The notes beneath the pieces are model-generated. The model ran no database searches, was not told the origin of the DNA, and saw only the letters and a program-made list of their open reading frames with translations. Positions 1 through 4,567 of a stretch of DNA of 4,567 nt are shown here, piece after piece. How positions within the stretch are numbered: position 1 is the stretch's first letter; every line of letters starts with the position of its first letter. The position numbers and the translations under genes are program-made. Origin of the DNA: a virus (lineage: Duplodnaviria > Heunggongvirae > Uroviricota > Caudoviricetes); the IMG/VR virus record IMGVR_UViG_2734482586_000007; one strand, written 5' to 3'.

Positions 1-25
1 GGGAAAAATATCATCAGATGGCTGC

Positions 26-379
26 TTAAAAAAAGAACAAATGGTAGTGTCCGCTATTGCCAGTACACCTCAATTGCTCTGCGGCTTCGCTCAGAGCTGG
101 CGTATGTTCCCGGCCTACTGATTCACACAGGTAATCAACGAAACCGGACACCAGTTTTCGTTCGCGAGGCGTGATCGCCCCACCGACCGGAGTCCAGTAA
201 TCGAAACCCAGTTGCAGGAGTTTGAAAAAACGCTTGTGGAATGCGTAGTTACACACACGCTTAAAGTCTGCGTGTATCCACTCACCTATTTTGATTTGAT
301 GCAGAAAATCGCAACTCTCCGGCGTCGCCGGGAGAAGTAATCCGGAAGAGGTTTGTTTGACCAGTTGTATATGTGCCAT
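26..379 (-). CDS. nin-region hypothetical protein, tentatively DUF1367/YbcN-like; 117 aa as read
   Basis: Minus-strand ORF. ATG at 379-377 is preceded by GGAG about 9 nt upstream; the ORF-track start at 421 is a TTG overlapping the upstream stop and is less likely. Stop TAA at 28-26 follows a T7 run on the coding strand, so the C-terminus may be artefactually short. Family assignment rests only on a recalled N-terminal pattern (MAxIQLVK...PA.PE) and on position at the start of the nin region. Confidence 0.45.
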   Translation of the reverse strand: MAHIQLVKQTSSGLLLPATPESCDFLHQIKIGEWIHADFKRVCNYAFHKRFFKLLQLGFDYWTPVGGAITPRERKLVSGFVDYLCESVGREHTPALSEAAEQLRCTGNSGHYHLFFF

Positions 380-967: not shown

Positions 968-1231
968 NNNNNNNNNNNNNNNNNNNNNNNNNNNNNNNNN
1001 NNNNNNNNNNNNNNNNNNNNNNNNNNNNNNNNNNNNNNNNNNNNNNNNNNNNNNNNNNNNNNNNNNNNNNNNNNNNNNNNNNNNNNNNNNNNNNNNNNNN
1101 NNNNNNNNNNNNNNNNNNNNNNNNNNNNNNNNNNNNNNNNNNNNNNNNNNNNNNNNNNNNNNNNNNNNNNNNNNNNNNNNNNNNNNNNNNNNNNNNNNNN
1201 NNNNNNNNNNNNNNNNNNNNNNNNNNNNNNN
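968..1231. other. run of 264 N (masked or gap); content unknown
   Basis: Directly visible. ORF-track entries crossing it (869..1234, 911..1249, 927..1310, 933..1253) are artefacts of translating N. It lies between the queH-like stop (1315-1313) and the hairpin/terminator at 832-946, so it could hide one small minus-strand gene or an RNA. Confidence 0.95.
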
Positions 1232-1312: not shown

Positions 1313-1999
1313 TCACTCCTTCTCTTCTTTACCGTAGTGGAGTTGACCAATTTTGATAAGAGGGCGTCCCTGAGATTTGCGGTGTAGATTGGTATCGCGC
1401 AGAGAATACACACAGCCACAATATTCCTGCTGATAGAATTTTTCGCGCTTGCTGATTTCAATCATACGGGACGAGCCGCCCTGCTTGCGCCAGTTATAAT
1501 CCCAGTACACCATGCCCGGATAATGCGCGACGGCTCGCCGCCCACAGTCGTTAACCTGCTGCATATTTTTCCAGCGTGAAATGCCCAGTGAACTGCTGAT
1601 CACACTGAAACCATTTTCAGCGGCGTACAGCGCTGTCCGCTCAAAACGCATGTCAAAACACATGGTGCAACGGATCCCTCGTTCGGGCTCCCATTCCATT
1701 CCTTTGGCTCGTTCAAACCAGTTGTCTGTGTCGTAATCAGCATCAATAAACGGCACGCCGTGTTGTTCAGCAAAGCGAATATTCTCATCCTTACGAATTA
1801 AATACTCTTTCTGAGGATGAATGTTCGGGTTGTAGAAAAAGATGGTGTAGTCGATTCCCGAGGCCTGAAGCGCCTCCATCACCTCACCGGAACATGGAGC
1901 ACAGCAAGAGTGCAGTAGTAGTTTGTTTGCCCCGTTTGGGAGCTCCAATTTGGGCCGTTTGAAATCAGCAACTGTCATAAATATGTTTATTGGGGTCAT
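1313..1999 (-). CDS. queH: QueH-like epoxyqueuosine reductase (DUF208 family), 228 aa
   Basis: Minus-strand ORF with ATG at 1999 (alternative ATG at 1978); no obvious Shine-Dalgarno for either. The translation carries cysteine-rich motifs I associate with DUF208/QueH: [33 protein letters not shown]. Stop TGA at 1315-1313. Confidence 0.75.
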
Positions 2000-2997: not shown

Positions 2998-3779
2998 CTA
3001 CTTAACAACCCTCGAATGGCTAACATTCGGACGCCAGCTCTCCCAGTTAAAATTCACCCAGCGCCNNNNNNNNNNNNNNNNNNNNNNNNNNNNNNNNNNN
3101 NNNNNNNNNNNNNNNNNNNNNNNNNNNNNNNNNNNNNNNNNNNNNNNNNNNNNNNNNNNNNNNNNNNNNNNNNNNNNNNNNNNNNNNNNNNNNNNNNNNN
3201 NNNNNNNNNNNNNNNNNNNNNNNNNNNNNNNNNNNNNNNNNNNNNNNNNNNNNNNNNNNNNNNNNNNNNNNNNNNNNNNNNNNNNNNNNNNNNNNNNNNN
3301 NNNNNNNNNNNNNNNNNNNNNNNNNNNNNNNNNNNNNNNNNNNNNNNNNNNNNNNNNNNNNNNNNNNNNNNNNNNNNNNNNNNNNNNNNNNNNNNNNNNN
3401 NNNNNNNNNNNNNNNNGATAGCTGCCGCTAAGTGATTCTTCCCGGTACCAGGTTTTCCGCTGAACGCAAAATTTGTACACCCGGTCATCAGTTCATCGGC
3501 GATGGATTTCGCCTGGCTTAACGCGTATCGCTGGCCGTCGTTCTGCACCTGGTAATTCGCAAACGAGCATTTACGGTGCAACGGCTGGATGCCTGAGCGA
3601 TTCAGAATTTTTTCCACCCGCAACTGGCGATTCAGGCGGTTGATCTCCTCGCTACGTTTCTGGCCTTCAGCAAGTTGCCACTCGCGCCACTCCGCTACCG
3701 TTCTGAATGGGGCGGTTACATGTGGCGGGGTCAGTCGGCGGATGCGTTCCAGAACGCCGCCTGTCGCAATATTTTTCAT
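2998..3779 (-). CDS. DnaC-family replicative helicase loader (AAA+), interrupted by the N run; the N-terminal and C-terminal parts are in different frames as given
   Basis: N-terminal part (3779 to 3417): MKNIATGG...FANYQVQNDGQRYALSQAK...FAFSGKPGTGKNHLAAAI closely resembles E. coli DnaC through the Walker A motif. C-terminal part (3065 to 2998, another frame): RWVNFNWESWRPNVSHSRVVK resembles the DnaC tail (LWVIFNWDSYRSRV) and stops at TAG 3000-2998, just before the ren RBS. The span 3779-2998 is 782 nt, which is not a multiple of 3. Confidence 0.8.
3066..3416. other. run of 351 N (masked or gap) inside the DnaC-like gene
   Basis: Directly visible. It hides the central AAA+ region (Walker B, sensor motifs). 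ORF-track entry 3016..3435 on the plus strand is an N-translation artefact. Confidence 0.95.
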
Positions 3780-3785
3780 GGTCCG

Positions 3786-4121
3786 TTACCCCCTGAAGCC
3801 TGGCGGGATCGCACTGTCCGGCAACGAGACGGTGTTAACCTGTCGGAGCAACGTCTCAGGCCGAACACCTTTCGGCGCGAACAGGCCCTGGTATTCATTG
3901 GCGATGCTGTGTCGAATCACCTGCTCAGGTGTAAAACCCTGCTGACGGAATTTTTCCAGTTCCCGTATCGCCCCGTTAGCGCCCTGCTCCGTTCGAATCG
4001 GTTTTCGCAATGCCTGTCTGAACCGGACCCACTCATGCCAGAGTGTTTCCGGCAACCAATCGGGCAGCTCAATAGCCTCCGGCTCGAATTTTTTAGACGC
4101 TCGTTTTTGGCGAGGGGGAGA
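3786..4121 (-). pseudogene. replication initiator (replisome organizer), C-terminal DnaT-like domain segment
   Basis: Frame open from 4121 to stop TAA 3788-3786. Translation ...FEPEAIELPDWLPETLWHEW...RQVNTVSLPDSAIPPGFRG matches my recollection of the E. coli DnaT C-terminus (PDWQPD..., VNTVSEPDSQIPPGFRG). The ORF-track start at 4055 is a TTG and is not the real start. The stop is 6 nt upstream of the DnaC-like ATG. Confidence 0.7.
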
Positions 4122-4134
4122 TCAGTATTTAGAT

Positions 4135-4154
4135 CTTCCTCTTCCTCTTCCTCT
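4135..4154. repeat. hexanucleotide repeat (CTTCCT)x3; encodes EEEEEE in the minus-strand linker frame
   Basis: Directly visible: cttcctcttcctcttcctct. On the minus strand this reads GAG GAA GAG GAA GAG GAA in the frame that is open across 4255-4122. Confidence 0.85.
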
Positions 4155-4178
4155 GGTAACGCTTTTTGATCCGTTTGT

Positions 4179-4197
4179 GTAACGCTGGCAGCGTTAC
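4179..4197. repeat. perfect 19-bp palindrome GTAACGCTG-G-CAGCGTTAC; candidate initiator-binding iteron (ori-like)
   Basis: Directly visible. A further GTAACGC copy lies at 4156-4162. It sits in the linker-coding part of the initiator gene, near GATC sites at 4120-4123, 4132-4135 and 4168-4171. Confidence 0.5.
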
Positions 4198-4224
4198 CTT
4201 TTCGTTTCAGTTCGCGTATTTTTG

Positions 4225-4463
4225 TTACTCGCTCGTTTGTAACCGCCCGTTTTTTTTAGAGCTTTTTCCGTTATGACGTTCAAAGTTAGGTAGAGAAAGC
4301 CCTCCGTCATTTTCGACCAGCCATCCAACCTGAATTAACGCATCAGCAAAACCAGACATAAAAGTGATGCGATCTATTGCACTTTTTGTAACGCCGCGAG
4401 CGTTACAATCTGCATTACCGTCTATCATTTGTTGATCCGCCCATGCCCAGAAGCGAATAACCT
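4225..4463 (-). pseudogene. replication initiator, N-terminal segment; upstream boundary set by the IS end
   Basis: Frame open from the IS junction to TAA 4227-4225. The ORF-track GTG start at 4488 lies inside the putative IS terminus, so it is an artefact. The first native ATG is at 4428-4426 (MIDGNADCN...), with a weak RBS. Continuing into the linker requires a -1 shift at the A8 run (plus T8, 4250-4257). Confidence 0.5.
4386..4408. repeat. inverted repeat TTGTAACGC-cgcga-GCGTTACAA (9-bp arms) with the same core motif as the 4179-4197 palindrome
   Basis: Directly visible. Core GTAACGC at 4388-4394 and GCGTTAC at 4400-4406. Confidence 0.5.
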
Positions 4464-4567
4464 GAGGTAGCCTGAGTTTAACGGACACTCCTTCCTGAAA
4501 TAGAATGGCATCAGAAGGAGCTAATAATGAGCAGAAAAACCCAACGTTACTCTAAAGAGTTCAAAGC
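4464..4567 (+). mobile_element. left end of an IS3-family insertion sequence (IS600-like by recollection), truncated by the window edge
   Basis: A plus-strand ORF starts at ATG 4527 with AAGGAG 6 nt upstream and reads MSRKTQRYSKEFK..., which I recognise as the N-terminus of an IS3-family OrfA. A candidate terminal inverted repeat begins TGAGGTAGCC at about 4464, about 63 bp before the ATG. The exact boundary is uncertain by about 10 bp. Confidence 0.6.
4527..4567 (+). CDS. IS3-family transposase OrfA, N-terminal 13 codons only (partial)
   Basis: ATG at 4527 with AAGGAG at 4515-4520; translation MSRKTQRYSKEFK runs off the window end. Confidence 0.6.
   Translation, partial: MSRKTQRYSKEFK

Follow-up and report, generated by a model that had tools for sequence, protein, structure and literature searches.

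Phage lambda encodes its replication initiator O followed by a helicase-loading factor, P, and the origin of replication (ori) lies inside gene O. The sequence A AAA AAG of dnaX is a programmed −1 frameshift site. Transcriptional slippage has been reported for Shigella mxiE and for endosymbionts, in each case on long A/T runs. Residues 84–179 of DnaT form its C-terminal ssDNA-binding domain (PMC4129139). IS600 is one of five insertion sequences expanded in all Shigella species, and every Shigella reference genome contains at least 199 pseudogenes (Hawkey et al. 2020, PMC7373316).

The window analysed here is a stretch of 4,567 nt of phage DNA. We are highly confident that its positions 3786–4462 are a pseudogene of one 262-codon phage replication initiator carrying three real, independent lesions. 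The gene belongs to a defective prophage of Shigella sonnei, lambdoid and Rac-like, and encodes a basic and acidic linker between an N-terminal domain and a C-terminal one that is DnaT-like. A 1264-bp IS600 element has inserted after codon 35, duplicating GGT and detaching the start codon and upstream region. The A-run, which codes for lysine, is A8, with the stop at 4227–4225 following, and a 10-bp deletion between TCCCCCT repeats shifts the frame again before the DnaT-like domain. Replication slippage in the homopolymer would account for the first of these two indels and slipped-strand deletion for the second. A functional initiator is probably no longer made, and fragments may still be translated, for example an 87-aa ORF or an 89-aa C-terminal ORF from TTG 4055.

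On the minus strand, the frame from GTG 4488 runs to TAA 4227–4225. The second frame is open between 4255 and 3917, the third from 4121 down to its stop codon at 3788–3786. These frame coordinates, as well as the positions of the homopolymer runs given in an earlier note on this DNA, were confirmed from the sequence; in addition to the A8 and A6 runs (Table 1), there is a C5 run at 4114–4118 and an A5 run at 4104–4108. The pieces in the three frames are one gene, as the earlier note had claimed, since they are collinear with consecutive parts of a single 262-aa ORF at more than 99% nucleotide identity. Gene callers do annotate the 87-aa or a 67-aa fragment alone, as ‘putative bacteriophage protein’, which would suit three separate small genes. 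However, this collinearity, together with the coverage of residues 1–262 by one profile match (PHROG 2509), leaves that reading with practically no probability.

Table 1. Features of the initiator remnant and its surroundings in the window.
Feature	Positions	Strand	Basis or comment
DnaC-like helicase loader ydaV	2998–3779	−	Partly under N mask 3066–3416
Putative initiator pseudogene remnant	3786–4462	−	677 nt; alignment to intact genes
Segment 3, PPRQKRASKK then DnaT-like C-terminal domain, ending ...NTVSLPDSAIPPGFRG + TAA 3788–3786	3786–4118	−	Third frame
A6 run, no lesion	4089–4094	−	Identical in intact genes
Single retained TCCCCCT copy, frameshift lesion 2	4113–4119	−	10-bp deletion (TCCCCCTAAA)
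Segment 2, basic and acidic linker, RAVTNERV...ALPEEEEEEDLNTDL	4120–4249	−	Second frame
A8 homopolymer, frameshift lesion 1	4250–4257	−	Alignment; intact = A6 (SSKKR) or A9 (SSKKKR)
Segment 1, N-terminal domain, from Val36 at 4461–4459	4258–4462	−	Frame of 87-aa ORF 4225–4488
3-bp target-site duplication, GGT on coding strand	4460–4462	.	IS600 flanks
IS600 end, running off the window	4463–4567	+	Terminal TG 4463–4464, orfA ATG 4527

A megablast search of 5,426 complete E. coli genomes identified 681 genomes with a near full-length match to window positions 3700–4567. The matching region is a single 789-nt (262-aa) CDS, located downstream of cI-like, cro-like and ydaT genes and directly upstream of ydaV, whose product in E. 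coli genomes is a DnaC-like ‘ATP-binding protein’. The order cI-like, cro-like, ydaT, initiator, ydaV was seen in five retrieved loci (L001, L002, L003, L013 and L022), and the synteny shared with intact homologues also includes DUF977. In the window, ydaV begins with ATG at 3779, 7 nt after the initiator stop. In the identical S. sonnei loci it is intact, a 248-aa ORF with PF01695 (IstB_IS21) and PF00308 matches (positions 10710–11456 of locus L003).

In functional phages, as in hundreds of E. coli genomes, homologues of the initiator are uninterrupted single ORFs. The same gene is annotated as ‘DNA replication protein O’ in sequenced phages of E. coli, for example vB_EcoS-673R7 (95.8% identity), as ‘ydaU’ in a record called Escherichia phage Rac and, by PGAP in one genome, as ‘phage replication initiator YdaU family protein’ (WP_001737256.1). 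Repair of the lesions by homology to WP_038340159.1 of E. coli FDAARGOS_944, that is, with A6 and the 10 bp restored, yielded 227 of 227 residues identical to residues 36–262 of that protein. Indels aside, the 677-nt remnant differs from the intact genes by 1 base (alignments A1 and A2), a synonymous SNP (GGA vs GGT). Judged by these alignments, the match is far beyond chance.

Residues 1–262 of the intact protein matched PHROG 2509, ‘replication initiation protein’, a profile of 277 positions (E = 1.2e−89). Through WP_038340159.1, the repaired window sequence shows full-length collinear homology to this family, and it occupies the same early-operon position, directly upstream of a DnaC-like loader. 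The uninterrupted ORF of the family is missing from the window, where IS600, the A8 frameshift and the 10-bp deletion break it; the window copy is thus best regarded as a pseudogene of the PHROG 2509 family and not as a functional member. No Pfam family was found for the intact 262-aa protein or its fragments, even at E ≤ 10, and PF07120 (DUF1376) in particular did not match the intact protein. PF07120 is present in a 285-aa protein (locus L008) at the initiator position of a neighbouring Rac-type prophage (S. sonnei loci L008, L011 and L012), and it is the family of K-12 Rac YdaU as well. The label ‘YdaU’ is therefore positional or derived from PGAP, and does not denote DUF1376 membership. 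Because no Pfam model hits the family, domain naming was based on PHROGs, PDB and NCBIfam, and the predicted initiator function rests on PHROG and PGAP annotation, synteny and the DnaT-like domain.

The C-terminal part is DnaT-like, as the earlier note had recognised. In a phmmer search, residues 170–262 of the intact protein aligned to the DnaT C-terminal domain (PDB 2ru8, E = 9.5e−5); these ~93 C-terminal residues include the near-identical tail NTVS-PDS-IPPGFRG. Neither the N-terminal domain nor the linker is related to DnaT. Against the NCBIfam DnaT equivalog NF002770, scores were 16.2–17.3 bits versus a cutoff of 201, with only the last 19 residues aligned. Thus, the protein is a phage initiator with a DnaT-like module and is no DnaT orthologue, the similarity being at the domain level only.

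The comparison with lambda gave a similarly partial resemblance. Within the early-right operon, the window gene holds the place of O, with cro and cII-like genes before it and a helicase loader after it; however, that loader is DnaC-like (AAA+) and is not lambda P. The initiator matched PHROG 678, ‘replication initiation O-like’, partially, and its sequence similarity to O-like families extends over part of the protein only.

Compared with intact homologues, the copy in the window is split by IS600, carries A8 where they have A6 or A9, and is missing 10 bp; it cannot therefore encode the initiator protein. The earlier note had placed both of its breaks at poly-A runs and had added one A to each to obtain a continuous ORF of about 225 aa from ATG 4428. 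Alignment to intact homologues, which it had proposed as a check, located the junctions at A8 and at the 10-bp deletion, so that its first break stood and its second did not. The doubly repaired frame is indeed continuous, with a length of 214 aa. The two-break account was also incomplete, having missed the truncation of the 5′ end by IS600.

Homology to the intact initiator stops at 4463. From there to 4567, the window matches what E. coli RefSeq genomes label ‘IS3-like element IS600 family transposase’, with up to 43 such places per genome. The full element in S. sonnei locus L003 spans 8763–10026 (1264 bp), with ends TGAGGTGTACTGG... and ...CAGGCTACCTCA (TGAGG...CCTCA) and ORFs carrying HTH_Tnp_1 and rve domains. 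As expected for IS600 (IS3 family), we found a length of ~1.26 kb, TG...CA ends, two overlapping transposase ORFs and a 3-bp duplication. The left flank reads ...GGGAAGGT up to TGAGG and the right flank continues from CCTCA into GGTTATTCGC; the intact gene has GGGAAGGTTATTCGC at this site.

The first 35 initiator codons (MASNWIKLEV...AALGK) lie beyond the element, at 8656–8781 of locus L003, where they are called as a 41-aa ORF. As read from these junctions, IS600 separates the start codon, 35 codons and the upstream region from the remnant. ATG 4428, taken by the earlier note as the start, is consequently an internal Met codon, and both it and GTG 4488, which lies in the IS600 end, were rejected as real starts. 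Codons 1–9 of the 87-aa ORF (GTG 4488 to CAG 4464–4462) lie in or span the IS600 end.

The second break is a 10-bp deletion (TCCCCCTAAA) between 7-bp TCCCCCT direct repeats (alignments A1 and A2). Intact genes read GATC TCCCCCTAAA TCCCCCT CGCC at this point, the undeleted sequence being TCCCCCTAAATCCCCCT, and the window keeps one TCCCCCT, at 4119–4113. Although the break overlaps the C5 run, which the earlier note had named among other possible sites, it is no 1-nt homopolymer event. The earlier note had set this junction at the A6 run, which is the same in intact genes; repair at A6 would give the peptide LAKNERLKK, where intact genes have LNPPRQKRASKK. The linker encoded just before the break contains a GAGGAA repeat in three copies (4136–4153). 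The case cautions that a frame break beside a homopolymer need not be a homopolymer event; here, the junction was located only by alignment to intact homologues.

At the first break, the assignment of the junction to the A8 run was borne out by alignment to intact genes with A6 or A9; with A8, frame 1 runs into the stop. The A6 allele is intact and was found in the listed best matches among ~640 complete E. coli genomes with the segment, and also in phage vB_EcoS-673R7, where the gene is intact too. A7 occurs in E. coli PEC240, in a gene marked ‘frameshifted’ by PGAP. A9 is intact in S. dysenteriae (WP_119163372.1, SSKKKR, 261 aa) and was also observed in a second gene copy of some S. sonnei assemblies, which is truncated by an insertion sequence elsewhere in the gene. 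A synthetic A9 query against the 5,426 complete E. coli genomes did not find the A9 allele; its listed best matches were A6, plus one A7.

A single step separates the A8 run from A9 and two nucleotides separate it from A6; it may have arisen by loss of one A from A9 or by gain of two from A6. Flanking SNPs are uninformative on its origin, as each intact allele shows just one SNP against the window and that SNP is shared by both. Restoring A9, as the earlier note had done, reproduces the natural intact allele of S. dysenteriae (SSKKKRAV), although this does not establish A9 as the ancestral state. Given that A6, A7, A8 and A9 all occur in nature, the run could be imagined as a hypermutable, contingency-like tract toggling prophage replication competence, or A8 could be partly rescued by transcriptional slippage; we consider both very unlikely. 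Neither could restore the function of the S. sonnei copy, because IS600 and the 10-bp deletion would remain.

The lesions are real and, as far as the examined data go, confined to S. sonnei. The three unmasked segments of the window are 100% identical to three S. sonnei loci (L003, L004 and L012). The A8 run, the 10-bp deletion and the unchanged A6 run were present in 10 of 10 retrieved S. sonnei loci, which came from several unrelated assembly projects and included chromosome-scale contigs. The 87-aa ORF opens inside IS600, runs on through codons of the initiator and terminates at the stop that A8 creates. An exact look-up found it on 492 contigs (481 collection blocks, 397 of them contigs of 2–5 kb) under the name ‘putative bacteriophage protein [Shigella sonnei]’; the 67-aa version from ATG 4428 was found on 73 further contigs. 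Every listed full-length match from the complete E. coli genomes differed from the window at both the A-run and the 10-bp site, with none lacking the 10-bp difference.

This distribution bears directly on the suggestion in the earlier note that homopolymer miscalls in a draft assembly had broken an intact gene. Its first break does lie inside an 8-nt homopolymer, and the A7 of PEC240 could be a real mutation or an error. Moreover, the window is flanked on both sides by IS600 ends (1–72 and 4463–4567) and so resembles a complete contig of a short-read assembly, bounded where IS600 repeats were collapsed. Nevertheless, the A8 run and the deletion in 10 of 10 loci from different projects, and the A8-dependent ORF on 492 contigs, show that the lesions are no artefact. 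The second lesion is a 10-bp deletion and not an error of homopolymer length, and the gene is disrupted by an insertion sequence in any case. We therefore assign this explanation a negligible probability. The other suggestion of the earlier note, real slippage mutations in a decaying prophage, was essentially right.

A functional full-length initiator made by recoding, through two programmed −1 frameshifts or A-run transcriptional slippage, is equally hard to credit. The heptamers A AAA AAC (4251–4257, frame 1) and A AAA AAT (4088–4094, frame 2) share with dnaX-type sites the formal X XXY YYZ pattern, in register with the incoming frame, and slippage at A8 would restore the KKK allele found in nature. 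Unlike dnaX, both have C or T instead of G as the Z base, and neither has a well-placed stimulator. Since functional homologues are single ORFs, the split is not conserved, in agreement with the earlier judgement that programmed frameshifting was unlikely. A slip at A6 would produce a peptide unlike the conserved one, and the same run in intact genes needs no shift.

RNA folding downstream of both sites revealed no credible stimulator, consistent with the earlier impression that an obvious stimulatory structure was lacking. A stimulatory structure was expected about 5–9 nt downstream; the only significant hairpin after A8 begins ~52 nt downstream, which is too far, and the sequence following A6 is not distinguished from shuffled sequences in its folding (z = −1.5). 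The Rfam search returned no family. Finally, IS600 takes away the start codon and 35 codons irrespective of any frameshift.

The pseudogene at this locus, hit three times and lying in a prophage remnant laden with insertion sequences, is thus a case of an already known phenomenon, ordinary decay of a prophage driven by insertion sequences and indels. It is typical of the IS-driven pseudogenisation described in Shigella (PMC7373316), with two small-indel lesions beside the insertion sequence. For annotation, the fragments should be merged as one IS600-disrupted, frameshifted phage replication-initiator pseudogene, replacing the present ‘putative bacteriophage protein’ or ‘hypothetical protein’. 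All three lesions seem to have become fixed in S. sonnei and might be used to mark lineages.

The same gene has also been inactivated independently elsewhere. The exact IS600/gene junction had 0 matches in a second contig collection, in which S. sonnei apparently has no species representative. A scan of this collection tolerant of A-run length detected only two A6 alleles, in S. flexneri SFBU1023 and in a record titled E. coli ECMA0423, both with an 11-bp deletion between GGGCG repeats. The frameshifted A7 gene of E. coli PEC240 is a further example of independent decay.

Two 19-bp palindromes, GTAACGC-N5-GCGTTAC, were observed inside the gene at 4388–4406 and 4179–4197, with a half-site at 4156–4163. 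The motif GYGTTAC occurs 7 times in the window versus 0.69 expected, and five of the seven copies fall within 4156–4406. A promoter and terminator scan gave nothing above shuffle expectation, its single ‘terminator’ match being the palindrome at 4179–4197. In the literature, nothing was found linking ydaU and ydaV with replication, and oriJ appeared only in a reference to oriJ plasmids. Initiator homologues at 33% identity are devoid of the palindromes. The same two palindromes, ~207–209 bp apart, with conserved arms and variable centres, are present in two relatives: Klebsiella phage ST11-OXA245phi3.2, at 51% amino-acid identity, and phage TL-2011b, where identity is 65% across the N-terminal half. 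The conservation of the arms across these relatives suggests a constraint at the DNA level. By analogy with lambda, whose ori is inside gene O, the palindromes are candidate initiator-binding sites or a candidate phage origin.

The initiator gene, a phage replication-initiator pseudogene in this S. sonnei prophage DNA, has also been inactivated independently elsewhere. S. flexneri SFBU1023 (L019) and a record titled E. coli ECMA0423 (L020) each carry an 11-bp deletion between GGGCG repeats, following ...IRTEQG, and E. coli PEC240 (L026) has an A7 run at the lysine-coding homopolymer and is labelled 'frameshifted' by PGAP. Some assemblies labelled S. sonnei (L016-L018) also contain a second copy of the gene. 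Its 5' end is intact, with an in-frame A9 run. An IS600-like end (TGAGGTAGCCTGAG...) severs this copy downstream of ...TQTDQKA, not at the position seen in the window.

Decay of the prophage is not confined to the initiator gene. In the S. sonnei loci, the ydaT-family gene upstream of it is called at 101 aa, versus 140 aa in E. coli, and the same remnant harbors further IS copies, of the IS110 family and other members of the IS3 family; the damage therefore reaches beyond the initiator gene. The gene for the epoxyqueuosine reductase QueH (PF02677), a tRNA-modification gene on a lambdoid prophage, is intact and is located in the early or nin-like region, whose further cargo includes DUF977, a 137-aa ORF, a hok toxin and Rem.

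The window corresponds exactly to the interval separating two IS600 copies, each 1264 bp long and both pointing the same way, and is probably a complete short-read contig with ends set by collapsed IS600 repeats. The copy at the window start lacks a target duplication, its flanks being CAAT and GTTC, and cuts short a DUF1367 gene. This suggests that an IS mediated a rearrangement or a deletion. Comparison with the identical S. sonnei locus L003 revealed that the lengths of the N-masked runs are not preserved, so ORFs listed across the masks are unreliable. The masks conceal the region of the hok (HOK_GEF) gene and the middle of ydaV, the DnaC-like helicase-loader gene directly downstream of the initiator gene; its true length is 248 aa, the 241-aa 'ydaV' being an ORF read across the mask.

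Coordinates of features in the window and in the compared loci
Feature	Location	Strand	Remark
IS600 copy, first border	window 1-72		L003 14407-15670
DUF1367 gene, truncated	window ORF 26-421
N-masked run	window 968-1231		264 N; 289 bases in L003
QueH gene	window 1313-1999	minus
N-masked run	window 3066-3416		351 N; 316 bases in L003
GAGGAA repeat	window 4136-4153
Palindrome half-site	window 4156-4163
Palindrome copy	window 4179-4197
Palindrome copy	window 4388-4406
IS600 copy, second border	window 4463-4567		L003 8763-10026
ydaT-family gene	L003 8273-8578
Second initiator-gene copy	e.g. L018 1431-1868
Palindrome pair, homologue locus L021	1649-1667 and 1858-1876
Palindrome pair, homologue locus L023	gene positions 149-167 and 358-376

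Inside the initiator gene, the 19-bp palindrome GTAACGC-N5-GCGTTAC occurs twice, accompanied by a half-site, and the A-run sits between the two copies; their spacing is 209 bp in the window versus 207 bp in A6 alleles. The pair is also present, 209 bp apart, in the homologues from Klebsiella phage ST11-OXA245phi3.2 (51% amino-acid identity) and phage TL-2011b (65% amino-acid identity, N-terminal half), with conserved arms and variable centres. Homologues at 33% identity lack the palindromes. The palindromes are candidate initiator-binding sites or a candidate gene-embedded origin; in lambda, ori is located within gene O.

The poly-Glu linker of the initiator is encoded by a GAGGAA hexamer repeat of variable copy number. 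Three copies were found in the window and in S. sonnei loci L003, L004, L008, L011 and L012, six in L005-L007 and L009, seven in L010 and two in the S. dysenteriae locus L013, and E. coli proteins have 4-5 EE units. Either the repeat is an in-frame VNTR or the differences are assembly variation among long-read assemblies.
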